The notes: generated by a model from the sequence alone, not told the origin. A DNA stretch of 64,000 nt from Nitrososphaerota archaeon (GCA_041641305.1 JBEPYN010000002.1:192001-256000), one strand, 5' to 3'. Numbered from the stretch's first letter, positions 2,708 through 43,096 are shown. Made by a program: numbers and translations.

Positions 2708-2747
2708 GGAGCATTTAATACGGGGTTTCCCGGAGACTCTGTGGGTT

Positions 2748-4307
2748 ATGGTCGAGACTTTGGCTCACCGCGGAGAAGACATTGTGTACAGGGCCATTTC
2801 TCCCAGCGAGTTTTTCTACAAGAACAGGGACATCGCCGGCTTCAGCAGCCCAGCCAGAAGCCTCTACATGAGCATCCGCGAGCTTGTGGAGAACTCGTTG
2901 GACGCGGCGGAGGCGGGTCGCATACTCCCCGAGATACTTGTTGAGCTGAGCGAGGAGGATGCGGAGAGGAACATTTACCGTTTGAAGGTTGTGGACAATG
3001 GAATAGGTGTACCCGGCGACAAGATTCCCTCAGCGTTTGCGACGGTGCTCTACGGCAGCAAATACGGGTTCAAACAGTCGCGTGGAACCTTCGGCCTCGG
3101 CGGAACAATGGCCCTTCTCTATGGCCAGATCACGACAAACAAGCCGGCTAAAGTGATGTCCAGCACCGACGGCAAAACCCTCTACGTTTATGAGTTGATG
3201 ATAGACGTTGTGGAGAACAAACCTCGGATAATAAGCTCCGAGAAGAGGCCGAGTCCCGGAGGCTGGCGGGGCACTTCTGTCGAGTTTAGCCTCGAGGCTG
3301 ATTATCCGGGTGCACGGGCTAAAATCCTCGACTACATCAAGCACACGGCCATCGTCAACCCACACGCCACCCTCACATTTGTCGACAGCAGAGGCCGGTT
3401 ATACCATTATCCACGCATGGTTGAGAAGGTGCCTGAGCCGCCGCGGGAGACACTGCCTCATCCGGTGGGCGTGGATGTTGAGATGATGTCGCGCATGCTT
3501 GCTGAGACCAAGGCACGCAACCTCCTCACCTTCCTCACAACCTCTTTCCAGAAAATTGGGCCTAAAACCGCTAAAGAGGTTCTTGAACTGGCTGGGCTGA
3601 AGCCGGAGACCAGCCCGAGGAAATTGAGCCACGAGCAGGTCACAGCTTTGGTCAACGCATTCAAGAGCTACGACAAGTTTAGGCCACCTGACCCCACTCC
3701 GCTCAGCCCCGTTGGAAAAGACTTCCTCGAAGCAGGCATCAAGCGAATCTTCAACCCCGACTTCGTCTACGTCGTGCAGCGTGAGCCATCATCATATAGC
3801 GGCCATCCCTTCATCGTCGAGGCGGCCGTAGCATATGGCGGCACCATACCGGTTACAGAGACCATCATGCTCTTCCGCTTCGCCAACAAGATTCCGCTTC
3901 TCTATGATGAGAGGGCTGATGTTGCGTGGAAGGTTGTTGAGGAGAGGATTGACTGGTCTAACTACAAGGTGCCCAAGCCCGCGCCCCTAGCCGTGTTCAC
4001 AAGCATCTGCTCCACCAAGATACCCTACAAGACCGTCGGCAAAGAAGCCATAGCCGACAGGCCCGAGATAGAACGGGAGCTGACCATGGCGCTCCGCGAA
4101 TGCGGCCGCAACCTCAAACTTTACCTCTCACGCATAGAGAAACGAGAAGCCGCCGCCAAGCGCCTAAGCCTCTACACAAAATACCTCCCCATGATAGCAG
4201 AGTTCGCAGCCAAAACCGCCGGCACACGCAAACCCAACATAAAACCACTCCTCAAAAAACTCGGCATAACCCAACAAGAAGACACAGCAACCAAAACAGA
4301 AACATAG
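2748..4307 (+). CDS. top6B: DNA topoisomerase VI subunit B
   Basis: ISPSEFF, ELVENSLDA, DNGIG, QSRGTFGLG GHKL motifs; RFANKIPLLY. Confidence 0.95.
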   Translation: MVETLAHRGEDIVYRAISPSEFFYKNRDIAGFSSPARSLYMSIRELVENSLDAAEAGRILPEILVELSEEDAERNIYRLKVVDNGIGVPGDKIPSAFATVLYGSKYGFKQSRGTFGLGGTMALLYGQITTNKPAKVMSSTDGKTLYVYELMIDVVENKPRIISSEKRPSPGGWRGTSVEFSLEADYPGARAKILDYIKHTAIVNPHATLTFVDSRGRLYHYPRMVEKVPEPPRETLPHPVGVDVEMMSRMLAETKARNLLTFLTTSFQKIGPKTAKEVLELAGLKPETSPRKLSHEQVTALVNAFKSYDKFRPPDPTPLSPVGKDFLEAGIKRIFNPDFVYVVQREPSSYSGHPFIVEAAVAYGGTIPVTETIMLFRFANKIPLLYDERADVAWKVVEERIDWSNYKVPKPAPLAVFTSICSTKIPYKTVGKEAIADRPEIERELTMALRECGRNLKLYLSRIEKREAAAKRLSLYTKYLPMIAEFAAKTAGTRKPNIKPLLKKLGITQQEDTATKTET

Positions 4308-5120: not shown

Positions 5121-5235
5121 TTATATAGTTCCCGAGGAGTCTTCTTTGAGAGGAGTGAGATTATTGCTTCGCCGGTTTGCTTTCTGAACTCCTCTGTCGA
5201 CGTCTCCTCTACTGTGGGTTTTGTGGTGATGTGGG
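5121..5235 (+). promoter_or_regulatory. Putative leuA promoter and leader: TATA-like TTATATA (5121-5127), mini-ORF (M)RGVRLLLRRFAF* (5146/5155-5187), alternative pairing segments
   Basis: Consecutive Leu codons TTA TTG CTT; AGAGGAGT (5149-5156) complementary to ACTCCTCT (5188-5195) and CTCCTCT (5204-5210). Confidence 0.45.
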
Positions 5236-6759
5236 ATGGCGTGGCGTGATTTTCTCGAGCTGAAGTTACCGGGGAGAGTCTTTGTCTTTGACACGACGTT
5301 GCGTGATGGTGAGCAGACGGCTGGGGCTGCGTTGAGGCCTGCTGACAAGGTTAGGCTGGCTGAGGCGTTGGCAGATCTTGGGGTGGATGTTATCGAGGCA
5401 GGGTTTCCGCCTGTTTCGCTCGGCGAATCCTCGGCCATCAAGGAGATAACGGGCATGGGTCTCGGCGCCAAAGTCTGTGTGCTGTCGAGGTGTGAGAAAG
5501 CCGATATAGACGCCGCCGCAAAAGTGGATCCCGAGTGGATACACGTCTTCATAGCGACCTCCGACATCCATCTCCAGCACAAGCTCCGCCTCACCCGCGA
5601 ACAAGCATACGAAAAAGCCGTCTCAGCCGTAGAATACGCGAAATCATACGGCTTCACCGTACACTTCTCAGCCGAGGACGCGACACGTACAGAGCTGCCG
5701 TTTCTGCTACGTGTCTTCAGGGCAGTCGAGGATGCGGGTGCCGACAGCATCGACATTCCCGACACGGTGGGTACAGCAATACCGTTGGCCATGAAGAAGA
5801 TAGTCACGGAGGTCAAGAACACGGTCAAAGTCCCCGTCGCAGTCCACTGCCACGACGACTTCGGACTCGCGGTGGCGAACTCGTTGGCGGGTGTGGAGGC
5901 GGGTGCCGAGATTGTCCACGCAACCATCAACGGCATAGGCGAGAGAGCTGGAAACGCGAGCTTGGAGGAAATTGTCGCCGCTCTCAGGTTTCTCTACGGT
6001 GTCGAGACCGGAATAAAGTTTGAAAAAATCTTCAGAGTTTCACGGCTTGTGGAGAGGCTCATGGGCATAACTGTGCCAAAGAACAAGGCCATAGTCGGCG
6101 ACAACGCCTTCGCACATGAAAGCGGAATACATGTACACGGCGTCCTCGGCAACCCACGCACCTACGAACCCGTCATGCCTGAAGTCTTCGGAAGAAGACG
6201 CAGAATAGTTTTCGGCAAACACTCGGGAATACACGGGCTCGAAGCCTTCCTCAGAGAATACGGCTTCACCGTAGACCGTGAGAAGGTGTCGCAGATACTT
6301 AGGCGGATCAAGGAGTTCGCCGATTCTGGTGGAAAGGTTTCTGAGGAGATTGTTCTCAACTATGCGGAGGAGGTGTATGGCCGGCGGAGCCAGCAACGCT
6401 CCTATGTCAAAAACCTGTTCCTAATGCTGGCTGGAAACGTTTTCAAGGCTCAGGTTGACTTGATGGTTGCCGGCGAGCTTGTGACAGGAGACGGTGAAGG
6501 GTCATCAGCGGTAGAGGCGGCGTTAAATGCCGTGACAAACGCAGCACGGAGAATCGCAGACTTCGAGGTAATCGACTACAAGATACATTCACCGTTAACA
6601 GGCGGCCAAAGCTCCGAGGCAGAGGTCGTCCTTGGCGTCGGAGGTGTTGAATATGTTGGCCGAGGAATTGGCCCCGACCCTTCGCTAGCCGTTGTCTCGG
6701 CTCTCACGAGCGCGGTTCACCAGTTATTGTTTGAGCAAAGGAGGCTGGAGACAGAATGA
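5236..6759 (+). CDS. leuA: 2-isopropylmalate synthase / citramalate synthase family
   Basis: DTTLRDGEQ, HCHDDFGLA, GIGERAGNA, AHESGIH; ilv/leu context; CimA specificity not excluded. Confidence 0.85.
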   Translation: MAWRDFLELKLPGRVFVFDTTLRDGEQTAGAALRPADKVRLAEALADLGVDVIEAGFPPVSLGESSAIKEITGMGLGAKVCVLSRCEKADIDAAAKVDPEWIHVFIATSDIHLQHKLRLTREQAYEKAVSAVEYAKSYGFTVHFSAEDATRTELPFLLRVFRAVEDAGADSIDIPDTVGTAIPLAMKKIVTEVKNTVKVPVAVHCHDDFGLAVANSLAGVEAGAEIVHATINGIGERAGNASLEEIVAALRFLYGVETGIKFEKIFRVSRLVERLMGITVPKNKAIVGDNAFAHESGIHVHGVLGNPRTYEPVMPEVFGRRRRIVFGKHSGIHGLEAFLREYGFTVDREKVSQILRRIKEFADSGGKVSEEIVLNYAEEVYGRRSQQRSYVKNLFLMLAGNVFKAQVDLMVAGELVTGDGEGSSAVEAALNAVTNAARRIADFEVIDYKIHSPLTGGQSSEAEVVLGVGGVEYVGRGIGPDPSLAVVSALTSAVHQLLFEQRRLETE

Positions 6760-8486
6760 GGGCGGCTGACGCATTAGTCAAGATGATGGAGAAGAAAGGC
6801 GTGGAGTATGTCTTCGGCATACCCGGCGGAGCCAACATGCCCTTCTACGACGCTTTACGCGACTCCGACATCAAGAGTATATTGATGCGGCATGAGCAAC
6901 AGGCTGCTCACGCGGCGGAGGGCTATGGACGGGTTAAGCGGAGACCAGGGGTATGCAGCGGCACATCCGGCCCCGGAGCCACCAACCTGATAACAGGCCT
7001 CGTAGACGCCTACATGGACAGCTCACCCGTCGTCGCGATAACTGGCCAGGTTGTCCGAGCCTTCATGGGCACCGACGCCTTCCAAGAAGCAGACATCGTC
7101 GGCCTCGTCCTACCCCACATCAAATACGCCGTCACCGTCAAAGACCCGCAGAGAGTGCTTCAGGAATTCGTCAACGCCTACAACATTGCAGCACATCACC
7201 GACCCGGTCCCACGCTCCTCGACCTCCCCCGCGACGTCTTCATGGAGGAGGTGGAGGAAAACTATGACATCGAGCCCGAGCCGCTTTTCAAAAGGCCTTT
7301 GCCCGAGCCCGAAATAGAGTCCATCAAGCAGGCGGCGAAGCTGATAGCGGAGGCGGAGAAGCCCGTAATCTTGGTGGGAGGCGGCGCGGTCTACAGCATG
7401 GCTGGAAAAGAAATCCTGGAGCTGGCGGAGCACATCGCGGCACCAATAGTTACGACGACGATGGGAAAGGGAGCTGTTCCCGAGGACCACCCGCTCGTCC
7501 TTGGTGTCGTAGGCATGCATGGCAGAGTGGAGGCGGACCTCGCCATCGTCGAGTCAGACCTCGTCATATGCATCGGCTCAAGACTCTCAGACAGGGCCAT
7601 AGGCCCAGCAAAAGAGTTTGAGAAAAACCGGAAAACCATCCACATAGACATCGACGCCAGCGAGTTTGGAAAAAACGTTCGCCCAACCGTTTCTCTCCCA
7701 GGAGATGCGCGGAAAGTGTTGGGCGAGCTCGTCGAATACACCAAAGCCATCGTGGCACGCAGGCCCGAGTGCCAGTTGGCGAAAAAGCTGCGGGAAATCG
7801 GAGAAGCCTACGAGGAATACATGATGTCCATGGATGACGGCCATGTTCTACATTCTTGGAAAGTTGTCTCCCTGCTGACGGACGCGGTCCCACCCGACAC
7901 GATTGTAACCACAGGGGTTGGACAGCATCAGATGTGGGCCCAGCTTTTCTGGAAAAGCAGGGCGCCGGGAACATGGTTGACCAGCGGAGGCCTTGGAACC
8001 ATGGGGTTCGGCCTGCCAGCCGCTTTCGGCGCAAAAGCAGCAGCACCCGACAGAATTGTGATGAACCTCGACGGCGACGGCAGCTTCCTGATGACCTGCC
8101 AAACCCTCGCATGCGTATCCGATTATGAGTTGCCGGTGATTACGGTGATTTTTGACAACCGTTCCCTCGGGATGGTGAAGCAGTGGCAGGACATGTTCTA
8201 CAACAAACGGTACAAGGACGTCGAATACAATGACCGGACAGACCTTGTCAAGCTCTCCGAGGCTTTTGGCGTCGAGGCGGTTCGGGTTGAAAGCTATGAT
8301 GAGCTGTTGAAGGCTGTGATGCGGGCTGTGAGGACAAACTCGGCCCTAACAGTTGATGTGCCCGTTGACACCGGTGAGCTTGTTTTCCCGATGGTTCCGC
8401 CTGGAAGATGGCTGGAGGATGTGAAGCTACCGCCAGGGTTTGACCTCAGCCAGCGCATGGTGGCCGCGGGGAGAATGTCGACTTGA
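6756..8486 (+). CDS. ilvB: Acetolactate synthase large subunit
   Basis: FGIPGG, RHEQ, TSGPGATN, GTDAFQE, TPP motif GDGSF...N. Confidence 0.95.
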   Translation: MRAADALVKMMEKKGVEYVFGIPGGANMPFYDALRDSDIKSILMRHEQQAAHAAEGYGRVKRRPGVCSGTSGPGATNLITGLVDAYMDSSPVVAITGQVVRAFMGTDAFQEADIVGLVLPHIKYAVTVKDPQRVLQEFVNAYNIAAHHRPGPTLLDLPRDVFMEEVEENYDIEPEPLFKRPLPEPEIESIKQAAKLIAEAEKPVILVGGGAVYSMAGKEILELAEHIAAPIVTTTMGKGAVPEDHPLVLGVVGMHGRVEADLAIVESDLVICIGSRLSDRAIGPAKEFEKNRKTIHIDIDASEFGKNVRPTVSLPGDARKVLGELVEYTKAIVARRPECQLAKKLREIGEAYEEYMMSMDDGHVLHSWKVVSLLTDAVPPDTIVTTGVGQHQMWAQLFWKSRAPGTWLTSGGLGTMGFGLPAAFGAKAAAPDRIVMNLDGDGSFLMTCQTLACVSDYELPVITVIFDNRSLGMVKQWQDMFYNKRYKDVEYNDRTDLVKLSEAFGVEAVRVESYDELLKAVMRAVRTNSALTVDVPVDTGELVFPMVPPGRWLEDVKLPPGFDLSQRMVAAGRMST

Positions 8487-8722
8487 AGTTTCTCCTCTTC
8501 GTCGAGCTCGTCAACAGCCACGACGCAGTCGCCAAAATGATGCTGACAGTCAAGCAGGGCAACCTCTCCATAGAATCCATAAACATACACAAAAGCGGCG
8601 ACGACAAGCTCTCGGCAATCCTCATGCTCGAGGGTGAGGAAAACAAAGCCGAGTGGCTCGCCCACAAACTTCTCAACTTCCCCTACTACAGGTCAACCGC
8701 AATCCTCAAACAAATCAAATGA
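8483..8722 (+). CDS. Acetolactate synthase small regulatory (ACT) subunit
   Basis: 79 aa, ACT-like, overlaps the ilvB stop. Confidence 0.6.
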   Translation: MKFLLFVELVNSHDAVAKMMLTVKQGNLSIESINIHKSGDDKLSAILMLEGEENKAEWLAHKLLNFPYYRSTAILKQIK

Positions 8723-8971
8723 CAGTAACAGGGAGAGAGTGTATCAGATCGGCGGCAGCCTTAACGGTTGTATAACCTATCGGGCGCTTAAACACAGGCT
8801 GCCTTGCGGCTTATCCTCTATTCCTATTACGGCTTTCGAGGTCTTTCTCTGGCTTTGTCTGGGTGCTTCGCGGGTTTTGATGTTGGTTGTTTATAAAAGG
8901 TAAGGCCTACGGCCTACAGCTCGCTCGTCAGGAGTGGCATCCGTATTTTGGACCTGCAATATATTAGGAGC

Positions 8972-9186
8972 TATGGTGATTGGCTCAGGAAGGTCAACAA
9001 TGGAAGAAGGGATGATAAGTCGATATTCGGGGAAGAGCCCCTCTCAAAGAAGACGAGACGGATGAACATAAAGATGGTCCAGAAGGCATTCATATACAAC
9101 CTCCTTCTGAACGCGGCATAAACCCAAGACAGAGCAAGAGCAGCAGGAGGAGAGGGCATAGAACCAAGGGAATTATGCCACACTAC
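8972..9186 (+). mobile_element. IS5/IS903-group-like transposase C-terminal remnant with possible degenerate right terminal repeat
   Basis: 8972-9121 reads YGDWLRKVNNGRR...IFGEEPLSKK...KAFIYNLLL*, resembling the W..K..YG.R...FGE.L.SK...K..YN tail; GAATTATGCCACACTAC at 9170-9186 resembles IS903-type ends. Confidence 0.5.
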
Positions 9187-9261
9187 AAAGCAAATCAATA
9201 GAGAAGAGTACTCTCTGAAGAGGACTAAACGGCTATATCTAAGGATAAGCATGGAGATGTC

Positions 9262-10533
9262 ATGCCTTCGAGAGCGGCCCCCACCATTATCGTGGTTTTG
9301 CTTGTTGCGGTGGTTGTTTTAGGGCTTGTGACAGAGGGTGTGGAAGCAGTACATTTACGGAGGACTAGAACCGGGACAACGTCTCAAACAACTCGTTCGA
9401 CAACTTCTTCAACTACCTCGACAGCACATACAACCACCTATTCGACAACTATAACCTTTACAACAACTGTAACCCATACGGTAACCTATTCGACGACCAT
9501 AACTTATACAACGATTGAAACATATACAACGGCACCGACGACTGTGACAAGTACAGTAACCTCGACCTCCTCCACGTCTGACTACTCGGACACGTTTCCC
9601 GCCGTTAACCCACAGATACTTGGAAACTGTCCACCGGAAGTGCATGACAGGTATTTTGTAATCGGCCCGGACGGGAGAAAGTACAGGACATGGCATCCTG
9701 TCACTGTTCCGCTGGACCCGAACAACACGGCTAGAGGATACTGCACGTTTGCTCACGAGCATGGCGATAATCCTCTACAGGGTAGCTTCAATGATTTGCC
9801 GCCTTTTGGCTACGCGGCTAAAGTGGCTGGAATGGTGCAAGAGATAGCCGCTCACGCAGGGTTCAAGGTTTTCTATAAGCCGATGTCCGGTGATGGTCTT
9901 GGTAACAACGCAGAGTGGCGCATAGTTGTCCATCAGGGGACGGCTGGTGCGAGGAGGCTCACCGAGTCTTTCCACAGCATACAAATCGACATTGTCGACT
10001 CCGCGGGGAGGGTGACACGGGTTAGTTTGATGGCTCCGACTGGTGATTTGAACCCGAAGTGTGGACCACGTGTAGGTGATAGGATAATTCCCGACGAGGA
10101 ATGTGTGAGGAGGGGGCAGTACTACGAGGTTTGGTACTTCGCTGTCCGTGTAGGAACAGGTGACATCAACGGGGCAAGATTCTTCGCAGCGCCGGGCATA
10201 GGCGTATACAACCCCATGACATACTTTAGGGTAGGGGACCTGTCGAGGGTTTATCCGATATCCAGCGTTGTCGAAGGGCTTCCCATGGGAGACCCCCGAA
10301 GCTTTTTCCTCGGAAACCAGAGAGCTGTTGAGCATCCAGACTTCGGATGGGGCAATCCAGGCCCCTCACGGTTCTGGACAGACGCATACGGCCGAGAAGT
10401 AGCGGGCAACTGTGACGCCACAAGATGCATAATGCAGACAGTTCCCACAGGATACTATGCATGGTTTGACGACGACTCTGTCTTCGACTGGCCTTGGATA
10501 GACCTGCCGCTGGGCGCCCCCGGAGGAAACTAA
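9262..10533 (+). CDS. Secreted/membrane-anchored protein with Thr-rich linker and Cys/His-rich domain (WHP...CTFAHEHGDNP)
   Basis: N-terminal hydrophobic signal, ~70-aa Thr/Ser run, 423-aa ORF. Confidence 0.75.
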   Translation: MPSRAAPTIIVVLLVAVVVLGLVTEGVEAVHLRRTRTGTTSQTTRSTTSSTTSTAHTTTYSTTITFTTTVTHTVTYSTTITYTTIETYTTAPTTVTSTVTSTSSTSDYSDTFPAVNPQILGNCPPEVHDRYFVIGPDGRKYRTWHPVTVPLDPNNTARGYCTFAHEHGDNPLQGSFNDLPPFGYAAKVAGMVQEIAAHAGFKVFYKPMSGDGLGNNAEWRIVVHQGTAGARRLTESFHSIQIDIVDSAGRVTRVSLMAPTGDLNPKCGPRVGDRIIPDEECVRRGQYYEVWYFAVRVGTGDINGARFFAAPGIGVYNPMTYFRVGDLSRVYPISSVVEGLPMGDPRSFFLGNQRAVEHPDFGWGNPGPSRFWTDAYGREVAGNCDATRCIMQTVPTGYYAWFDDDSVFDWPWIDLPLGAPGGN

Positions 10534-10618
10534 ATCGGCCAGCATAGACTGCGGCTTACGCTGGTAAGATGACTTATCCACCCTGTCCACGATGCTGATG
10601 CGAAACATGGATAGAGCC

Positions 10619-10849
10619 CTACAAGCCCTTTGAGCGGTGGAGCGTTTCAAGCCCTGTCTCACCTCTCTTCTTTTTCCGCGCCACGACAACATCCACGTCG
10701 TACCTCTTACTTATCTTCTCGAAAGTTCTTCTATCCTCTCTTGAGAGCCTACCAGAGCCGTATTAGCACTCCTCAAGTGTAGCCTTCCCATCCTTTATGC
10801 ATACGAGGTCGACGGGCTTGCTTCTAGCAGCCCTGATGACAAACAAACC
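10619..10849 (-). pseudogene. Hjc-like Holliday junction resolvase (PD-(D/E)xK) remnant
   Basis: GLFVIRAARSKPVDLVCIKDGKATLEEC*YG...; the catalytic Lys position is TAA (10763-10765) and the N-terminus is missing. Confidence 0.7.
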
Positions 10850-10887
10850 AAATCAAATAAATATCCCTTTTTTCATGTGGATGAGTC

Positions 10888-11865
10888 ATGAAGGTGTACT
10901 ATGACAGCGACATCTCCCTCGAAGTGTTGAAGGGGAAAAAGATAGCGGTCATCGGCTATGGTAGCCAGGGCCGTGCACAGGCTTTGAACATGCGTGACTC
11001 GGGGCTTGACGTGGTTGTAGGCCTCCGTGAAGACGGCACGTCGTGGAAAAAAGCTGTCGAAGATGGTTTCAAGCCTCTGCCGATAGAGGAGGCGGCGAAA
11101 GCCGGCGACGTCATACACATCCTCATACCCGACCCCGAGCAGCCCATGCTCTACAGAGAGAAGATACAAAAGCATCTTTCGGCGGGGAAAACTCTCGGCT
11201 TCTCACACGGCTACAACATCCATTTCCGCCAAATCGTGCCACCATCCAACGTAGATGTGGTGTTGATGGCTCCCAAGTCACCGGGGCCGAGGATGCGTGA
11301 GCTCTATCTTCAGGGCAAGGGTGTGCCAGCTCTCGTCGGAGTGGGGCAGAATTATACGGGGCATGCTCTTGAGACGGCGTTGGCTATGGCGAAGGCGTGT
11401 GGATGTTCACGCGCCGGCGTGATTGAGACCACTTTCAAGGATGAGACGGAGACAGACTTGTTCGGTGAGCAGGCTGTTCTCGTTGGTGGTGTGGTTGAGC
11501 TTATCCGCAACGGTTTCGAGGTCTTGGTCGAGAACGGCTACCCAGCGGAGCTTGCATATTTCGAGGTTTTGAACGAGCTGAAGCTTATCGTCGACCTCAT
11601 CTACCAAGGCGGCATAACCCACATGCTGAAGGCTGTGTCCGACACCGCGAAGTACGGCGGTTTGACTGTGGGGCCCCAGATAGTTGATGACCATGTTAGG
11701 AAAAACATGGAGAAGGCTCTCGCAAGCATAAGGTCGGGCGAGTTTGTTGAAACATGGACAGGGAACCCGCGCAGCTACGAGATTCTCAACGACTTGATGA
11801 AGAAGATGGCGGACCACCAGATTGAGAAGGTTGGCGAAAAAATCAGGAAAATGGCGAACATCTAA
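10888..11865 (+). CDS. ilvC: Ketol-acid reductoisomerase
   Basis: [29 protein letters not shown]. Confidence 0.97.
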
Positions 11866-13019: not shown

Positions 13020-13910
13020 CTAAGAGAGCGCGGTATAGACCTCGATTGCCAGCTCCTCGGCCAATTTTCTGGCGGCATCGGCCACGTAGGGAGACACGAT
13101 AGCCAGCATCGGTTTAACACCCACTTCTCTTTCGTACAGCTGTGCCTTGCGCAGAAGCTCAGCGACATCGCCTCTGCTTATGCTTGATTTAACCTCAACA
13201 AGCAGATGAGTATCATCTTTTATGATTAGGTCTACTTCGACAATAGCGGGTCTGCCGTAGACCAGTCCCTCGTAGTCATACCTCGCCCATTTGTCGACGG
13301 TTCCCCCAAACACCCTCTCCACAATATTCTTCATCGCCTCTCTGAAAGAAGATTCAGCCATAAGTCCCCATCTGGCACCTAGGGCAACCAAAGCTCGGCC
13401 TAGCTCGGCTACCTGACTCTGTAAGGCTTTGATGGCCTTGCCGTGTTCTGCGACCTGTTCCTGTAGGGCTTTGATATCTTTGCTGAGTTCTGCGACCTGT
13501 TCCTGTAGGGCTTTGATATCTTTGCTATGTTCTGCGACTTGTTCTTGTAGAGCTTTGATGGCCTTGCCGTGTTCAGCAACTTGCTCCTGTAGGGCTTTGA
13601 TTGCTTTGCTGAGTTCTGCGACTTGTTCTTGTAGGGCTTTGATTGCTCTGGTGTTTTCCGCTACTTCTTGCTGTAGGGTTTGGATGGCTTTGCTATGCTC
13701 TGTAACCTGTTCCTGTAACGTTTTGATTTCTCTGCTGTGTTGAGCCACCTCCTCTTGAAGGGTTTTGATGGCTGCTGTGTTGTTGTCTATTCTCTCGAGT
13801 ACTTCCTTGAAGCCGATTAGGCCTGCTACCGCGTATCTGAACTCCTGGTCCTCTTTGAGCAGACGGAGGAACTCTTCCTTAATCGACACCGTTATAATCC
13901 GTGACACCAA
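13020..13910 (-). CDS. Coiled-coil repeat protein with C-terminal PD-(D/E)xK domain (DUF3782/DUF1626-like)
   Basis: LKEDQEFRYAVAGLIG N-terminus; LGARWG...E..FRE; EVDLII...LVEVKS. Confidence 0.85.
   Translation of the reverse strand: MVSRIITVSIKEEFLRLLKEDQEFRYAVAGLIGFKEVLERIDNNTAAIKTLQEEVAQHSREIKTLQEQVTEHSKAIQTLQQEVAENTRAIKALQEQVAELSKAIKALQEQVAEHGKAIKALQEQVAEHSKDIKALQEQVAELSKDIKALQEQVAEHGKAIKALQSQVAELGRALVALGARWGLMAESSFREAMKNIVERVFGGTVDKWARYDYEGLVYGRPAIVEVDLIIKDDTHLLVEVKSSISRGDVAELLRKAQLYEREVGVKPMLAIVSPYVADAARKLAEELAIEVYTALS
13410..13770 (-). repeat. 42-bp intragenic tandem repeat (~8 copies, IKALQEQVAEHSK-type 14-aa unit)
   Basis: Repeated ttctgcgacctgttcctgtagggctttgat variants; boundaries approximate. 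Confidence 0.9.
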
Positions 13911-14000
13911 ACCCTATAAACTTGTCTGGGCAGTGTTTTACTGCGGCGGAACTGGTTTTCTGAACTGTTTATAAAAGGGTTTTGTTGTTTTTGTGTAGCC

Positions 14001-17000
14001 ATGATGAATGTGTTGGATGTAGATGATATACTTAGCGGTATCAGGGGAGCTGTTAGCGTGGCGCAGAGTGAGGAGGATGTTAGGCTGCGTGTTTCGGGTA
14101 TTATTGAGGAGAAGATTTTGAAGCTTCTTGGGATTACTCAGGTTGGTAGGTATGAGTATACACTTGTTTCGGGTGTTAGGGTTGATGCGTTGTATGGGCA
14201 TGTTTTGATTGAGTACAAGGCTCCCGGTAAGCTTTCGAGTAGGTCTGATGTGGCTAATGCGAAGGAGCAGTTGATAAGGTATGTTGTGGAGGAGGCGGGT
14301 GTTGAGGATAGGTATAGGAATTTTCTTGGTGTTATTATTAGTGATAGGATTGCTTTTCTGAGGTATAATCCGCGGGCCCCGGGTGATAAGTGGGTTTTGC
14401 GGGGGCCTTATGATATTAACCGTGAGACTGTGGTTAAGCTTGTTGAGGCGTTGCGTGGTCTTCAGAGGAAGAGTCTTGGTGTCGAGTCGCTTGTTAGGGA
14501 TTTTGGGCCTCAGTCGGATGTTGCTAAGAGGATGGTGAAGCTTCTGTATGAGCGGTTGAGGGGTAGCAATTCGGCGAAGGTTAGGGTTCTTTTTGAGGAC
14601 TGGTTTAGGCTTTTCTCTCAGACTACTGGTTACTCGGCGGAGAGGCTTAGGGAGTTGAAGGAGTTGGTTGATAGGTATGGTTTTAAGGGTAAGGTTGATT
14701 ATGATTCGCTGCTTTTCTGTCTCCATACTTATTATGCTTTTGTGATGAAGTTGTTGGCTGCGGAGATTGCTTATTTGTATGGTTCTGGTAAGTGGTTGAA
14801 GTCGTATGTTGGTGAGTTGGAGAACGCGTATCTTCAGGGTGGGGTTGACTCGCTGCGGCAGGTTTTGAGGGAGCTTGAGGAGGGCGGGGTTTTCACCAAG
14901 TTGTTGAATATTGTTAACTTTGTTGAGGGTGATTATTTTTCATGGTATTTGGATGTTTTGGATAAGGATTTGGGGGATGCTGTTGCGGAGGTTGCGAGGA
15001 GGTTGTCGGATTATGAGCCTGCTACTCCTCAGCTTGAGCCTGAGTCTGCTCGTGACTTGTTGAAGCGGTTGTATGAGTCTCTTATTCCGCGTGATGTTCG
15101 TCATAAGCTGGGTGAGTTTTATACGCCTGATTGGTTGGCTGAGCTTGTTTTGGATGAGGTTGGGTTGACGGTTGAGCGGTTTGAGGAGCTTGGTGCTGAG
15201 AATTCTTTGAGGCCTCTTGAGCTGCGTGTTTTGGACCCTGCGTGTGGTTCTGGGACGTTTCTGGTGCTTTATCTGCGTAGGTTGAGGGAGTATGCTGAGG
15301 AGCATTATATGGTGGACCAACTTGTTGATTATGTTTTGCGTAATGTTGTTGGGTTTGATTTAAATCCTTTGGCAGTTTTGGCCGCTCGGACCAATTATCT
15401 GCTGACGATAGGGGATTTGCTGACGCATGCCAAGGGGACTGTTGAGATTCCTGTGTATTTGGCGGATTCTATCATGGTTGAATCTAAGAGTGATCTTCGT
15501 GGTCAGGTTTATGTTTTGAGGTCGGCTGCGGGTGTTTTTGAGATTCCTAAGGCTGTTGTTGATGGTGGTTTTCTTTCGGATGTTTTGAATGATGTTAAGA
15601 TGGCTGTGGCGAATAGGTATACTGTGGGCGAGTTTAAAGGTTTTGTGTGTTCGAAGTATGGGTTTTCTGATGTTGATGTGGATGTTTTGGGGAAGTTGTT
15701 TGATGTGTTTCTTAGGCTGGAGAAGGAGGGGAAGAATCATGTCTGGGTGTCGATTGTGAGGAATGCTTTTGCACCGATTCTGAAGGGGAGGTTTGACTAT
15801 GTGGTCGGTAATCCGCCGTGGGTTGCATGGGAGAATCTACCTGCTGCATATAGGGAGGTAACCTCCGATATCTGGGGGAAATATGGACTTGTTAGCCGTG
15901 GTGCTGGTCGGTTTAAGCGTGATTTGTCTATGTTGTTTCTTGTGAGGTGTTTTGATCTCTATTTACGGGATGGTGGGGTTTTGGGTTTTCTTCTGCCGTT
16001 TACTCTGTTTAAGACGCAGGCGGGGGCGGGGTTTAGAGAGTTTGTAGCCAAGTGGCAGGTTAAGAAGATTCATGATTTGGTTACTCTTTATCCGTTTGAG
16101 GGGGCTGTTAATAGGTCGGCTGCTATCGTGGTGGCCAAAATTAGGGAACATGCGGGACAACATGCCTATCCTCATGTCATTTGGAATACACGTGACAATA
16201 GACCGGTTCCTCCTGATTCTACGTTTGGAGACGTTTTTAGGATGACAGACAGGCATGAAGCGCTTATGGCTCCGTTAATTGAAAATAATCCTGGCTCTCC
16301 GTGGGCCCAATCAACTCCATTAGTAATGGAGGCTATGAGAAAAATCTTGGGGCGTTCAGAATATCGAGCATACGAAGGGGTCTTATTTGCTTTGAATCAG
16401 GTATATTGTGTCAGGATTTTAGAAAAAGATAAAGATGGTTTGCTTCTGATAACCAATCCAGAGGAAAGCGGTCAAAAGAAAACAGTTAAAACTATACACG
16501 CAAAAATAGAGCCAGACCTTGTCTATCCCATTATAAGGGGGCGTGACGTAAAAAGATGGTGCGTAAACTACAAGGGGCTATACACTATCATACCCCACAA
16601 AACTGACGGACAACCAATCTCTCATCATGAGATGAAAAAACGTTTTCCAAAAACTTGGGATTACTTTTATACTTTTTTTAACGAGTTGATAAATAGAAAA
16701 GGAGGATTTTTAGACCAAAAAATGAAGCCTTATAGAACCTTGAAGTTAGAATCAGCTGAGAAAAAAACCGTACCCTTCTATTATGTAATGAACAAAGTTG
16801 ACGCTGCCTTCTCCCCTTACAAGGTTGTCTGGAAGGCCATCTTTGGTGCAATAACGGGAAAAGCTGTTGATTTTGCATGTTCAGTTGTTTTCACAATTAA
16901 AGACACACTTCTAGGAGAACGCCCAGTAATCCCAGAGCATTCACTGATGTTGGTTCCATTAAAATCAAAAGAAGAGGCATATTACCTAGCAGGAGTTTTA

Positions 17001-17630
17001 AACTCAACCCCACTAAAACTAGTTATAGCATCATATACATTCGAGCTGGGCGGATACACACATATATTGGATTTTCTGAGAATCCCAACGTACAACGGAG
17101 CTCCACTACAAAAAACAATCGCGGCAATTAGCGAAAAAGCACACGAAATAACTAAAAAGATTAACGAGAAAAAGCACGACCTTACACATGAACTGAACGA
17201 AATAGAAGAACAGCTGGATAAAGCGGTTGCTGAGCTTTATGGTTTGTCTGATGTAGAGCTTGCGGATATTAAGCGGTTTTTCGCAATCCTCGCCGGCGAA
17301 GAAATCTCCGAGGAAGAGACCGTTGAAGAGGAGGAGGCGGAGCTGAGCATAACTTTCCCCAAAACCGTCCTAACACCCAACCAACCCGAAACAATAACCA
17401 TCCACATTACCAACCCCGACAGCCAACCCCTCACAATAACCCTCAACCTCCCAGACAACCAAACAACAACAATCACCACAAACAACCAAGAACACACAGA
17501 AGACATCCCCATAAACCCCCTCCCACCAGGCACATACACACTCACCTACACCATACAAACAAACAACCAAACAATCAAACAAGACACAGTAGAAATAACC
17601 GTCACACAGCCAAGGAGGTTCAGAACATAA
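14001..17630 (+). CDS. Fused type IIG restriction-modification enzyme (PD-(D/E)xK nuclease + N6-adenine MTase + TRD) with extra C-terminal beta-rich domain
   Basis: RVDALYGHVLIEYK nuclease motif; GEFYTP; DPACGSGTF (motif I); GNPPW (motif IV); 1209 aa. Confidence 0.9.
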   Translation: MMNVLDVDDILSGIRGAVSVAQSEEDVRLRVSGIIEEKILKLLGITQVGRYEYTLVSGVRVDALYGHVLIEYKAPGKLSSRSDVANAKEQLIRYVVEEAGVEDRYRNFLGVIISDRIAFLRYNPRAPGDKWVLRGPYDINRETVVKLVEALRGLQRKSLGVESLVRDFGPQSDVAKRMVKLLYERLRGSNSAKVRVLFEDWFRLFSQTTGYSAERLRELKELVDRYGFKGKVDYDSLLFCLHTYYAFVMKLLAAEIAYLYGSGKWLKSYVGELENAYLQGGVDSLRQVLRELEEGGVFTKLLNIVNFVEGDYFSWYLDVLDKDLGDAVAEVARRLSDYEPATPQLEPESARDLLKRLYESLIPRDVRHKLGEFYTPDWLAELVLDEVGLTVERFEELGAENSLRPLELRVLDPACGSGTFLVLYLRRLREYAEEHYMVDQLVDYVLRNVVGFDLNPLAVLAARTNYLLTIGDLLTHAKGTVEIPVYLADSIMVESKSDLRGQVYVLRSAAGVFEIPKAVVDGGFLSDVLNDVKMAVANRYTVGEFKGFVCSKYGFSDVDVDVLGKLFDVFLRLEKEGKNHVWVSIVRNAFAPILKGRFDYVVGNPPWVAWENLPAAYREVTSDIWGKYGLVSRGAGRFKRDLSMLFLVRCFDLYLRDGGVLGFLLPFTLFKTQAGAGFREFVAKWQVKKIHDLVTLYPFEGAVNRSAAIVVAKIREHAGQHAYPHVIWNTRDNRPVPPDSTFGDVFRMTDRHEALMAPLIENNPGSPWAQSTPLVMEAMRKILGRSEYRAYEGVLFALNQVYCVRILEKDKDGLLLITNPEESGQKKTVKTIHAKIEPDLVYPIIRGRDVKRWCVNYKGLYTIIPHKTDGQPISHHEMKKRFPKTWDYFYTFFNELINRKGGFLDQKMKPYRTLKLESAEKKTVPFYYVMNKVDAAFSPYKVVWKAIFGAITGKAVDFACSVVFTIKDTLLGERPVIPEHSLMLVPLKSKEEAYYLAGVLNSTPLKLVIASYTFELGGYTHILDFLRIPTYNGAPLQKTIAAISEKAHEITKKINEKKHDLTHELNEIEEQLDKAVAELYGLSDVELADIKRFFAILAGEEISEEETVEEEEAELSITFPKTVLTPNQPETITIHITNPDSQPLTITLNLPDNQTTTITTNNQEHTEDIPINPLPPGTYTLTYTIQTNNQTIKQDTVEITVTQPRRFRT

Positions 17631-19076
17631 ATGAGCTCCCACGACCTCTACAGAAAAATCCAAATCTTCCTCGGAGACCTCGCAACAAACAAACACCTCG
17701 CATCAACCAAAGAATACAACATGCTCCCCCGATACGTCGTCGAATACCTCGTCAGCGAATTCATAAAAACACACGGCCCAACAAACTACGCACCAAAACT
17801 ATCCGAATACATCGCAAACCACTACCGAGAAGCACGGGAAAAAGACAAAGTCCTCCACGAAACCATGAACGGAAACACAGTCCACCTCATAGACGAAATC
17901 AAAGTCGAAACAGACGTAACCATAGAAAACTACCGAACACACCTCATGAACCTAGGAATAAAAGACGCCATGATAGCCAAACCAGTAATAGACAGCTACG
18001 AAAACCTCCTCGTCACAGGGATGTGGGGAGAAGCAAAAATCCAATACAACCCCGAAATAGTTCCCCGCAACATAAAAGGCGAACCACTCCTCACGCCCAT
18101 AATCATCACAGAATTCAAACCATTCCAAAGCCCGGTAACAGACCCAACAATCCTAAAAGACGCAAGACAAGCATTCACCTTCGACGAATGGCTCGACACA
18201 CTCATAAACACCATAGGCCTCAACCACGAAAGATACAGCAAACGCCAAAAACTCATCCTACTCTCCCGCCTAACACCACTCGTCGAAAACAACACCCACA
18301 TAATAGAACTCGGCCCAAGAGCAACAGGCAAAACATACCTCTACAGAAACACAACATACTACACAAGAATATTCTCAGGAGGAAACATCTCCCCCGCAGT
18401 CCTCTTCTACCACATAGCAAGACGAAGCCTCGGAGAAATAGCCGTAAAAGACACAGTCATATTCGACGAAATAAGCAAAATCAAATTCAACAACCCCGAC
18501 GAAATGATGGGAAAACTCAAAGACTACATGGAAAGCGGCCACTACGAAAGAGGCCCCAAAAAAGCATACAGCACATGCTCCCTCGTATTCATGGGCAACA
18601 TAACAGTCGAAACAAGAGGAACAGCCTACGCACCCATAGAAGAATTCACATACGTCCTCCCAGAAGCCATGCGAGACAGCGCATTCATAGACAGACTCAA
18701 CGCCATAATCCCCGGCTGGGAACTCCCAAAAATAAGCCACTCAGCCCTCCACCTAAGCAGAGGATACGGAATAGCCAGCGACTACTACGCCGAAGCCCTC
18801 CACGAACTCCGCAAACAAAACTACCAACACATCATACAACAAGAAACACAGCTCATAGGCAACTACACAATAAGAGACGAAAAATCAGTCCTAAAAATAG
18901 CCAGCGCCCTCCTCAAACTCCTCACACCCAACGCCGACAGAGACGGAATAGCCCGCGACGAACTCAAACAAATAATGGACATAGCCGTAGAATACCGCAA
19001 CCAAGTAAGAGAATGGCTACGCATCCTCCAGCCCGGCGAATACCCCAAAGAAAAACTACACTACAAAACATCCTAA
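17631..19076 (+). CDS. brxL: BrxL-like AAA+ ATPase (BREX-associated), lacking the C-terminal Lon protease domain
   Basis: LPRYVVEYL, ELGPRATGKT (Walker A), VIFDEI (Walker B), LKDYMESG, DSAFIDRL..IPGWE; only 481 aa. Confidence 0.85.
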   Translation: MSSHDLYRKIQIFLGDLATNKHLASTKEYNMLPRYVVEYLVSEFIKTHGPTNYAPKLSEYIANHYREAREKDKVLHETMNGNTVHLIDEIKVETDVTIENYRTHLMNLGIKDAMIAKPVIDSYENLLVTGMWGEAKIQYNPEIVPRNIKGEPLLTPIIITEFKPFQSPVTDPTILKDARQAFTFDEWLDTLINTIGLNHERYSKRQKLILLSRLTPLVENNTHIIELGPRATGKTYLYRNTTYYTRIFSGGNISPAVLFYHIARRSLGEIAVKDTVIFDEISKIKFNNPDEMMGKLKDYMESGHYERGPKKAYSTCSLVFMGNITVETRGTAYAPIEEFTYVLPEAMRDSAFIDRLNAIIPGWELPKISHSALHLSRGYGIASDYYAEALHELRKQNYQHIIQQETQLIGNYTIRDEKSVLKIASALLKLLTPNADRDGIARDELKQIMDIAVEYRNQVREWLRILQPGEYPKEKLHYKTS

Positions 19077-19419
19077 ACACCACCCCTAATCCTCAAATCA
19101 TCCCTCAACACGACGCCATGTTTCAAAGCCTCCACCCCAACGGGTTCCGCTTCTCCACAAGCCGTTTAAACTCCGAAACCGTAAGCGGAATGACTTGGAA
19201 TCCCGGCGGCGGGTCGAGGGTTTCCAGCCTTTTGAGCGGGTTGCCGCCGAAAACATCGGACACGAGGACTATGTCGACGTCGCTCCATAGGTTGAAATCT
19301 CCTCGGGCGTAGGAACCTACGAGAAACGCCGAAACCTCGAAGCCAAGCGACGAAACCCAGCTCCTCGCCAACTCAATCACAGCCTCCCGCCGCTCTCTCC
19401 GCCGCCTAACGATTTCCAA
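19073..19419 (-). pseudogene. MNT (minimal nucleotidyltransferase) antitoxin, frameshifted near the C-terminus
   Basis: GSYARGDFNLWSDVD; after NPL a shifted frame gives VEALKHGVVLRDDL...*. Confidence 0.75.
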
Positions 19420-41804: not shown

Positions 41805-42205
41805 CCGCGCCCAACAATATAGATGCCCATTGTTATGTTTTTAATGGCTATAGTGGGTGGGGCGTTGAACTATTGACATAATGGAGTCTCCTTTAGGCAT
41901 TTTGAATCCTTGGAGGTGGCTTAGAAAAAGTTCTGCGAAGATATTTCATGTGGGGTAGAGCTGCTTTCATCCCCAATTTACAGGCGAGCGGAAAATCCTG
42001 CCACAGCCTTTGAACCCGTTAAACAAGCAAAAATCTACGACCCGGCGCAAAAGTGGCCGTAGGCCTCTGAATATCAAAACTGTCACATCGGCAAAGCATA
42101 GAACAGTTGGTTGAGATGCTGGAAAAACCTTTATGAGTTGTTGGATGTGTATGTGGGTTAGTTTGGTTAATGCTTTTTTGGATGTTTTTGTTTGTTCTGT
42201 ATGTG

Positions 42206-43096
42206 GTGTTTTATACTTTTGAGGATGTTGTGAGGGTTTTGCAGGTTTTTCAGGAGATGCCTTCTGCGGTTAGTGAGGAGTTGCGGGGTTGGAGGTGGCG
42301 TGAGCCTCCGCTTCTTTCTCCGTATAGTGTTCGGGTTAATGCTTCTGATCTTTCTTTTGGATGTGATTCGGGTCGGTTGGCTTATCTTCGTCATGTTGCG
42401 GGGGTTAGGGAGAGGGCTGGTGAGGAGCTGTTTTTGGGTTCTGCTGTGCATAGTGCGGTTGTGGAGGCTTCGACTGCGGCTAAGGGGATTCTTTATCATA
42501 GGAGGCCGGAGAGTGGCCGTGTTTTGTATGAGTTGATGATGGATATGGGTGAGGATATTCGTGGGAGGCGTGTTTTCAGGGGGTTTGAGAGGGTGTTTGA
42601 CTCGTTGTGGAGCTCTGCGTGTTTGACCTATTCTTCTTGTCTGGATCGTGTTTTGTCTCTTTCGCGTCATCTTGGCTGGGATGGTGTTGTTTACAGGGTT
42701 GTGCCGTGGGTTTGTGAGTTTCCTGTGGACGGTAGACCTTTGGGCCTTAACCGTGCCATCAGGATTGATGCCTTGATTCCGCCCTCGATTTTGGTGGAGT
42801 TTAAGACGCGGCGTCCTTCGCGTCTTCATGAGGTTGCTTTGGCGGGTTATGCCTTGTCTTTTGAGGCTCAGTTTAGGGTTCCGGTGAATCATGCCTTGCT
42901 TCTTTACGTGGATGTGAAGAGGGATGGTTCTTACAAGGTTTATGAGCATTTTGTTCATGTGGATGATGAGTTGAGGCTGGAGTTTGTTGAACGGCGTGAC
43001 CTGTATTGCCGGGTTGTTGCGGAGGGGGTTGACCCCGGTCTTCCACCTGAGTGTGACAGATACTGTCCATATCTGAAATTCTGCCGTTCTGCATAG
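42206..43096 (+). CDS. csa1: CRISPR-associated Cas4-family protein Csa1 (type I-A)
   Basis: VSEELRGW.W..PPL.P, RIDA...VEFK, AGYAL..E, C-terminal C...CPY..C; start estimated at GTG 42206. Confidence 0.9.
   Translation: MFYTFEDVVRVLQVFQEMPSAVSEELRGWRWREPPLLSPYSVRVNASDLSFGCDSGRLAYLRHVAGVRERAGEELFLGSAVHSAVVEASTAAKGILYHRRPESGRVLYELMMDMGEDIRGRRVFRGFERVFDSLWSSACLTYSSCLDRVLSLSRHLGWDGVVYRVVPWVCEFPVDGRPLGLNRAIRIDALIPPSILVEFKTRRPSRLHEVALAGYALSFEAQFRVPVNHALLLYVDVKRDGSYKVYEHFVHVDDELRLEFVERRDLYCRVVAEGVDPGLPPECDRYCPYLKFCRSA

Follow-up and report, generated by a model that had tools for sequence, protein, structure and literature searches.

A nuclease-bearing type IIG restriction-modification enzyme and a short BrxL as a two-gene cassette in archaea

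BrxL is a DNA-encircling ATPase, which in the BREX (bacteriophage exclusion) systems is needed for restriction and is dispensable for methylation (PMC10164562). In a 2026 survey of BREX, this protein is described as specific to types 1 and 4 of these systems, and partners of the type IIG or MmeI-like kind go unmentioned in the survey (PMC12839542). Among the type IIG restriction-modification (RM) enzymes, the subfamily comprising TspDTI, TsoI and Tth111II is marked by the motifs DPACGSG and NPPW, the catalytic residues in TspDTI being D66, E75 and E77, and uncharacterised homologues carry the pattern D-EXK (PMC3384240). The present work concerns a stretch of 64,000 nucleotides (nt) from a Nitrososphaerota archaeon (GCA_041641305.1, JBEPYN010000002.1:192001-256000; this whole stretch is referred to as the window, and positions are counted from its first letter), in which a gene for a type IIG RM enzyme is followed directly by a gene for a short BrxL (positions 14001-19076). 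A nuclease-bearing type IIG enzyme and a short BrxL form a two-gene cassette in many archaea, whereas BrxL has otherwise been reported only from BREX. The two members of the pair are of kinds already known, viz. the type IIG RM enzymes and the BREX component BrxL. The literature on BrxL in connection with type IIG enzymes, archaea, COG4930 or TIGR02688, in a search that left out most subscription journals, contains no description of this pair.

The two genes and their genome

The pair consists of two abutting open reading frames (ORFs) on the + strand, 14001-17630 (1209 aa) and 17631-19076 (481 aa), the TAA codon of gene 1 (17628-17630) being followed with zero gap by the ATG codon of brxL at 17631. 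The features of the two genes are as follows.

14001-17630, + strand: type IIG (IIC/IIL) RM enzyme, 1209 aa, made up of nuclease, helical domain, gamma-class N6-adenine methyltransferase, target-recognition domain (TRD), acidic linker and immunoglobulin (Ig)-like tail, as assigned by PADLOC PDLC03630 and Pfam
14178-14219, + strand: PD-(D/E)XK nuclease motif RVDALYGHVLIEYK, residues 60-73 (D62, E71-Y-K73), from the sequence and alignments
15234-15254, + strand: S-adenosylmethionine-binding motif I DPACGSG, residues 412-418, invariant in alignment A2
15810-15821, + strand: methyltransferase catalytic motif IV NPPW, residues 604-607, invariant in alignments A2 and A5
17286-17627, + strand: acidic linker EEISEEETVEEEEAE (residues 1100-1114), 7-strand Ig-like beta-sandwich and basic C-terminal peptide (PRRFRT); a proposed BrxL-docking module, from its fold, co-occurrence and a complex model
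17631-19076, + strand: short protease-less BrxL, 481 aa, with an N-terminal DNA-binding region and an MCM-like AAA+ ATPase, from TIGR02688, Pfam and the alignment to 8EMC
18312-18335, + strand: BrxL Walker A motif GPRATGKT, residues 228-235, invariant in BrxL alignments A1 and A4
18456-18470, + strand: BrxL Walker B motif VIFDE, residues 276-280, invariant in BrxL alignments A1 and A4

The PADLOC profile REase_MTase_IIG (PDLC03630) matches gene 1 with 1216 bits, residues 11-1098 being aligned to profile positions 12-1099 of 1100, and the Pfam families Eco57I, N6_Mtase and MmeI_Mtase also match it above their cut-offs. The nuclease residues D62, E71 and K73 vary little or not at all across the enzyme alignments A2 (13 homologues) and A5 (12 homologues). 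Judged by these profiles and motifs, gene 1 is a single-chain type IIG RM enzyme with intact catalytic motifs. A search of the sequences of solved structures with the enzyme gave a single weak match, to a methyltransferase domain. The NCBIfam models for the BREX methyltransferase PglX scored 21-51 bits with gene 1, against cut-offs of 400-900, and with these models so far below cut-off and the nuclease kept, the enzyme is not of the PglX type; the PAPS reductase of type 4 BREX was not searched for. Due to the presence of DPACGSG, NPPW and a D-EXK pattern at about residues 60-80, the enzyme is a predicted member of the TspDTI subfamily of the Thermus-family IIS/IIC/IIG enzymes, this assignment being by motifs and the published motif table alone. 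A control search of a Thermus thermophilus genome with PDLC03630 gave no signal and settles nothing concerning the subfamily.

Gene 2 scored 469 bits with TIGR02688, the NCBIfam model for BrxL (cut-off 329), and its matches to PF13337 (358 bits) and PF20442 (85 bits), which between them represent the BrxL_N and BrxL_ATPase domains, are above the curated cut-offs. With TIGR02653, the model for the BrxL form of type 1 BREX, it scored 304 bits, below the cut-off of 628. Its alignment to the solved Acinetobacter BrxL (8EMC, 679 aa) covers residues 29-459 of the latter and goes no further, so that gene 2 has no Lon-like C-terminal domain. Residue E280, in the Walker B motif, is the counterpart of the residue of this motif that was mutated in the solved BrxL (PMC10164562). 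The preliminary description of this locus, which had been made from the sequence, had read it as a nuclease-methyltransferase-TRD fusion of 1209 aa followed without a gap by a protease-less BrxL of 481 aa, and this is borne out by the ORFs, the motifs, the matches to PDLC03630 and TIGR02688 and the alignment to 8EMC.

The host genome (1.66 Mb, 99.3% complete) is Caldarchaeum-like, as judged from its nearest relatives, and a search of the whole genome shows that the BrxL of the pair is the only one in it. No match was found anywhere in this genome for PglZ (PF08665) or for the BrxC/PglY ATPase (PF04465 (DUF499) and PF10923 (BrxC_BrxD)), and neither BrxA nor BrxB was found in it. The absence of pglZ, brxC, brxA and brxB, which had earlier been noted for the window, thus extends to the genome as a whole.

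Conservation of the pair and of the enzyme tail

A scan with a BrxL alignment, in which each species was represented by one genome, yielded 60 loci with a short BrxL, and in about 20 of them tblastn with gene 1 identified a homologue of the enzyme family just upstream of BrxL. The lineages containing the pair include Candidatus Caldarchaeum subterraneum, Bathyarchaeia, Methanodesulfokora (Korarchaeota) and other Thermoproteota, among them the complete genome of Pyrobaculum oguniense TE7, as well as Aenigmatarchaeota, ANME-1, Alkanophaga and Thermoplasmata, i.e. at least seven archaeal lineages, and in addition two Thermotogaceae. A separate sample of the phylum comprised 400 genomes, with the source genome as G000, and a close homologue of the enzyme stands beside a BrxL match in 12 of them besides G000 (viz. 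G079, G095, G209, G266, G234, G108, G048, G087, G040, G097, G252 and G400), some of these copies being broken, split or cut by a contig end. One further genome, G032, has a tail-less homologue of 1070 aa and no BrxL in the genome. PglZ of any kind is present in only 1-3 of the 29 genomes holding the same kind of short BrxL. In a tree of BrxL sequences, 18 BrxLs linked to a type IIG enzyme, together with two located at contig ends, form one group (Shimodaira-Hasegawa-like approximate likelihood ratio test support 83) with two sub-clades supported by values of 99 and 100; the Thermotogaceae fall within the archaea, and the only BrxL of the sample with a PglZ link (L030) lies outside the IIG-linked clade. 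By the topology of this tree, the cassette is an old one that has spread horizontally. Viral contigs contain three distant BrxLs only (32% identity) and no cassette, and in plasmid records the relatives of the enzyme reach at most 31% identity and those of BrxL at most 38%, none of them being arranged as a pair.

Several variations on this arrangement were also seen. In the Bathyarchaeia, the IIG-linked BrxL (632-647 aa) has an extra C-terminal stretch of about 160 aa without a Pfam match (L003 9995-11893, L005 9995-11932, P0020, P0036 and others). The genes found between the enzyme and brxL in L006 (5674-8010), L016 (6908-9992), L018 (4096-4620) and L049 (8873-10004) encode an RNase_H_2/PolB-exo-like exonuclease, an SMC-like ATPase, a DUF6084 protein and several proteins of unknown family. 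The short BrxL also occurs in other contexts lacking PglZ (L025, L027, L034, L041, L057; L012, L032, L033, L046; L070). One of these consists of a DUF1156 methylase, a protein of about 1090 aa, BrxL and two small proteins, and in another BrxL is followed by a protein of 510-580 aa of no known family. The best short BrxL on a plasmid, that of a Thermus oshimai plasmid (L070), lies amid genes for a vWA protein, a tubulin-like protein, a 3'-5' exonuclease and a giant RecQ. By its neighbours, BrxL appears to be a module common to several undescribed systems.

The match of the enzyme to PDLC03630 ends at residue 1098, and hence about 111 residues (1099-1209) lie beyond the family profile. The preliminary description had put the extra Ig-like region after the acidic linker at about 95 residues, which is close to the observed length, and the fold it had proposed agrees with the AlphaFold2 prediction (12-row alignment) of a 7-strand sandwich, with a mean predicted local distance difference test (pLDDT) score of 79 and values of 85-89 in the core. 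The Foldseek matches of the tail are to domains of the Ig-like, CARDB and FN3 types (E of about 1e-4), and no PglZ chain is present among the matches listed, so that the idea of a PglZ-like tail gains no support. The tail is moreover no peculiarity of this copy, nearly all of the BrxL-linked relatives carrying it: these enzymes are 1219-1263 aa long, and an acidic linker, a weakly conserved beta region of about 90 aa and a basic motif are found in nearly all of them. In most of them a short helix comes after the basic motif; it is absent in the window copy and in that of L002, both of which end in RRFRT.

Close homologues of the enzyme identified by a protein search fall in two length classes, of about 1210-1260 aa and about 1123-1143 aa, and 80 metagenome loci were fetched with an alignment containing both. 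An enzyme was counted as tailed if it had at least 111 residues past position 1098, and as tail-less if it had 20 or fewer such residues and at least 500 nt of downstream sequence. In these loci, all 21 of the tailed enzymes are followed by BrxL, which starts at -3 to +48 nt from the enzyme stop codon, and an intact BrxL is not found downstream of any of the approximately 38 tail-less enzymes. One example of a tail-less locus is L095, in which residues 442-481 of BrxL alone remain right after the stop codon, and this state looks like the outcome of a single deletion. In a tree of the enzyme core, built without the tail columns, the tail-less forms branch off at several points within the tailed clade, and the state of the tail matches that of BrxL in 6 of 6 independent phylogenetic contrasts (sign test, p ~0.03). 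When divergences were compared in 25 cassettes, that of BrxL was correlated with that of the tail (r = 0.92), of the N-terminal 700 residues of the enzyme (r = 0.88) and of the TRD (r = 0.53), and the correlation of the tail with the N-terminal part of its own enzyme (r = 0.84) is below that of the tail with BrxL. As the tail is present only where BrxL follows, the enzyme and BrxL probably work together, and with BrxL being an obligatory neighbour, the enzyme may not act alone. The reading of the pair as an RM-BrxL unit independent of BREX, with a pairing conserved in other archaea, is supported by the 60 loci, the genomes of the phylum and the tailed metagenome enzymes alike.

A possible contact between the tail and BrxL was modelled from 12-row alignments of the tail (A3) and of BrxL (A4), with BrxL taken as one monomer. 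The complex gave an interface score (ipSAE, interaction prediction score from aligned errors) of 0.68 (0.65-0.71 in different runs), the best of the three controls giving 0.00; in the calibration, 58 of 80 solved complexes came up to this mark, as did 2 of 110 mismatched pairs. Between runs, 56% or more of the contacts recur, and the partners have a pLDDT of at least 79. On the BrxL side, the predicted interface comprises residues 3-22, 42, 50-51, 167-174 and 372-385, and on the tail side the C-terminal peptide (RRFRT) and one sheet. We know of no solved complex resembling that of the tail and BrxL. The model supports binding of the tail to BrxL's N-terminal region, and the earlier suggestion that the tail recruits BrxL gains support, at the level of prediction, from this score in conjunction with the strict co-occurrence, the six contrasts and the correlation of the divergences. 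In the BREX system of E. coli, Strep-tagged BrxL pulls down BrxX (bioRxiv 10.1101/2024.04.12.589305).

Locus, mobility and codon skew

The genes flanking the pair are housekeeping genes, with a ketol-acid reductoisomerase, a small methyltransferase, an aconitase-C/LeuD-type subunit and a DUF3782/PDDEXK_10 gene on one side and an ABC transporter on the other. The G+C content is about 0.53 in the surroundings and falls to 0.36-0.48 within the pair. Three further features of the cassette are as follows.

13963-14000, + strand: upstream end of the cassette with a TATA-like box TTTATAAA (13969-13976) about 25 nt 5' of the ATG codon; homology to the L002 cassette begins at 13963, and the box is a putative promoter element
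16142-17217, + strand: target-recognition region, swapped as a cassette between strains, with normal codon composition and low G+C, from the comparison with L002 and the X2 contig
17614-17619, + strand: GGAGGT, a putative Shine-Dalgarno-like motif 12 nt 5' of the brxL ATG codon, within the end of gene 1

The position of the TATA-like box relative to the ATG codon suggests a leaderless or short-leader transcript for gene 1, and the GGAGGT motif together with the abutting stop and start codons suggests that the translation of the enzyme and brxL is coupled.

The extent of the cassette becomes apparent from a comparison with L002, a metagenome-assembled genome of Candidatus Caldarchaeum subterraneum with the same promoter-plus-two-gene cassette. 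Positions 6284-8470 of L002 are 82% identical to 13963-16142 of the window and positions 9584-11440 are 89% identical to 17217-19070, and the TRD between them (16142-17217) cannot be aligned. The flanks of the L002 cassette match window positions 5121-8720 and 2744-4270 in reverse orientation, so that this cassette (6284-11440) is placed between the homologues of window positions 4270 and 5121, at a distance of about 9 kb and with its orientation reversed. By this comparison the moved unit extends from just 5' of the TATA box through the brxL stop codon; beside the cassette, neither an integrase nor any convincing terminal repeats, direct or inverted, were found. In independent hot-spring data (run X2), contigs span both junctions of the cassette at the site occupied in the window, and one X2 contig has 680 other letters in place of 16525-17203, showing that TRD alleles differ between near-identical strains. 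The cassette is thus horizontally mobile, and its TRD is exchanged between strains.

Strain variation was also observed next to the cassette. The DUF3782/PDDEXK_10 gene, which encodes a coiled-coil protein (- strand, 13020-13910), contains 8-9 tandem copies of a 42-nt unit at 13338-13814, and a contig of run X3 lacks 168 nt (four units) of this gene, indicating a strain-variable copy number. Just 3' of brxL there is an ORF of 98 aa (- strand, 19123-19419); a contig of run X3 has 12 other letters in place of 19133-19414, and this ORF is therefore absent from the X3 strain.

The third codon positions of the cassette are strongly skewed. In 14001-16142, 91% of them are G or T (T 346, G 306, C 39, A 23), in 17217-19076, which encodes the tail and BrxL, 91% are A or C (C 299, A 265, G 40, T 16), and the TRD lying between these skewed parts has ordinary third positions. 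The skew has the same polarity in L002, is weaker or partial in the Bathyarchaeia cassettes L003 and L005, and does not occur in eight further cassettes. As the sequence is identical in independent assemblies, the skew is not an assembly artefact; its pattern resembles that of strand-specific C>T and A>G change gone to saturation. Three causes were considered and each fits poorly: convergent transcription leaves unexplained why a sense effect should end where the TRD begins, the terminus of replication of a small replicon would have to produce a far larger skew than any known to us, and repeated exposure of single strands during recombination or DNA import at high temperature would have to affect one and the same strand on every occasion. 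Some two dozen further ORFs of this genome show an extreme third-position bias towards G+T or A+C, in patches of either polarity (e.g. G000 C1:442-453 kb (L062), C1:832 kb (L065) and window 42170-43096). Many of these belong to CRISPR-Cas (Cas10, Cas6, a RAMP protein, the csx1-like Cas_APE2256, Cas1 and Csa1), and a few are housekeeping-like (an AlaX-like protein, an Obg-like GTPase, NAD(P)HX dehydratase and a radical SAM protein).

Function and comparison with known systems

We consider it a little more probable than not that the pair is a self-contained, horizontally mobile, two-component ATP-assisted restriction system in which the tail tethers BrxL. The enzyme would read an asymmetric site by means of its swappable TRD, methylate the host DNA and supply the PD-(D/E)XK nuclease, and the acidic linker, the Ig-like sandwich and the basic end peptide would, in keeping with the complex model, tether BrxL by its N-terminal region. 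BrxL would be loaded onto the DNA where the enzyme sits on an unmodified site, and once loaded it may either block replication or move along the DNA and join distant sites or enzymes, leading to efficient cleavage. The DNA step of this mechanism is modelled on the type ISP enzymes and on the translocase hypothesis for BREX. In type ISP enzymes (LlaGI, LlaBIII), the nuclease, the ATP motor, the methyltransferase and the TRD form one unit, and the motor links distant sites before cleavage. To a more specific statement, viz. that the pair is an autonomous minimal ATP-dependent restriction system, whose Ig-like adaptor loads the BrxL ring on unmodified DNA and which, as a system of two proteins, is a sibling of the BrxX-BrxL core of BREX or its forerunner, we would give a little less than an even chance.

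A number of observations weigh against a tethered restriction system of this kind. The characterised relatives TspDTI, TsoI and Tth111II cut DNA without a partner, and BrxL is thus not obviously needed for cleavage. Unrelated genes lie between the enzyme and brxL in some loci, and the enzyme of locus L026 (ANME-1) is without the sandwich despite a BrxL nearby. The DNA coding for the tail is contiguous with brxL, so that one deletion can remove both, or one recombination break in the TRD co-transfer both, and due to this a part of their joint loss and of the correlation between their divergences is explicable without a functional link. The score of the complex is a measure of model confidence, obtained from our own 12-row alignments and a single BrxL monomer. 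Further, both genes differ greatly from the host in codon usage, which makes their expression level uncertain.

The foremost alternative is that BrxL controls or licenses the enzyme, by restraining its nuclease or by remodelling or removing it on host DNA, and thereby limits self-restriction, given that this enzyme modifies only one strand and often changes its specificity. The binding model and the evidence from co-occurrence fit such a role equally well, TRD swaps are frequent and each of them would open a window of danger for the host, and a partner is not required for cutting by relatives such as TspDTI (PMC3384240). However, the loss of BrxL in BREX abolishes defence and causes no toxicity (PMC10164562, PMC12839542), and the existence of tail-less relatives without any BrxL implies that the enzyme family needs no safety device of this kind. 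A licensing role is hence regarded as unlikely, while retaining an appreciable chance. It is quite improbable, in our judgement, that the two are independent defence genes travelling as a compact island, with the tail serving the enzyme alone, e.g. in oligomerisation or contact with DNA. Against such independence, a tailed enzyme without BrxL was seen in 0 of 21 cases, and within the close clade no tail-less enzyme has an intact BrxL behind it; in addition, the two ORFs meet or overlap at their stop and start codons, BrxLs linked to type IIG enzymes group in one clade, and the complex model passes its controls. On the other hand, defence genes do cluster and move together, the short BrxL has quite different neighbours elsewhere (the DUF1156 methylase set, the vWA, tubulin-like and RecQ genes of the Thermus plasmid, and the 510-580-aa protein), and contiguity could account for the joint loss of the tail and BrxL. 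Lastly, a decayed BREX operon in which BrxL was left behind without a joint function, akin to the collapse of a BREX-like operon envisaged in the preliminary description, would agree with BrxL being otherwise described only in BREX types 1 and 4 (PMC12839542), but it is exceedingly improbable, as the enzyme is not a PglX and has kept its nuclease, both genes are intact with catalytic residues conserved across phyla, the cassette is bounded exactly by the promoter and the brxL stop codon and occupies a different site in the sister genome L002, the PglZ-linked BrxL (L030) lies outside the clade of IIG-linked BrxLs, and PglZ is rare in the genomes holding this kind of BrxL.

BrxL is required for defence in several BREX systems and is hard to study within a system of six proteins. 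The present results tie a large clade of short BrxLs to a nuclease-bearing type IIG enzyme in genomes lacking PglZ and BrxC, in contrast to the restriction of BrxL to BREX in the recent survey (PMC12839542). If the pair is indeed one unit, then it would provide a two-protein thermostable model for the function of BrxL and for its recruitment by a site-reading methyltransferase, and its simplicity would make it usable for learning how BrxL acts on invader DNA. The current annotation, as a lone type IIG enzyme and an orphan BrxL, would in that case mis-describe a common archaeal system.

In comparison with known systems, the pair would resemble the BrxX(PglX)-BrxL core of type 1 BREX in its proposed function, and in both a BrxL AAA+ ring has as its partner a large N6-adenine methyltransferase which is site-specific and has type IIG enzymes as relatives. 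It differs from type 1 BREX in being without PglZ, BrxC, BrxA and BrxB, in the intact nuclease of its methyltransferase and in a BrxL without the Lon-like/HKD domain. The short BrxL of type 4 BREX likewise belongs to the TIGR02688 family and consists of an N-terminal DNA-binding region and an MCM-like ATPase with no C-terminal extension (PMC12839542); however, in type 4 (PAPS reductase, BrxC, PglZ, BrxL) the partner is a phosphorothioation module with PglZ, and in the pair it is an RM enzyme. With TspDTI, TsoI and Tth111II-TthHB27I (PMC3384240), the enzyme has in common the single chain, the order nuclease-helical-methyltransferase-specificity and the same DPACGSG and NPPW motifs, and its nuclease residues are placed near-identically (D62/E71/K73, and D66/E75/E77 in TspDTI), this comparison being by motifs only. 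Unlike this subfamily, the enzyme adds an acidic linker, an Ig-like sandwich and a basic end peptide and is always followed by brxL, whereas the characterised Thermus enzymes work alone. The type ISP enzymes offer the functional analogy behind the proposed mechanism; however, their motor is superfamily 2 helicase-like and resides in the same polypeptide, whereas that of the pair would be a separate AAA+ ring, and no homology of the motors is implied.

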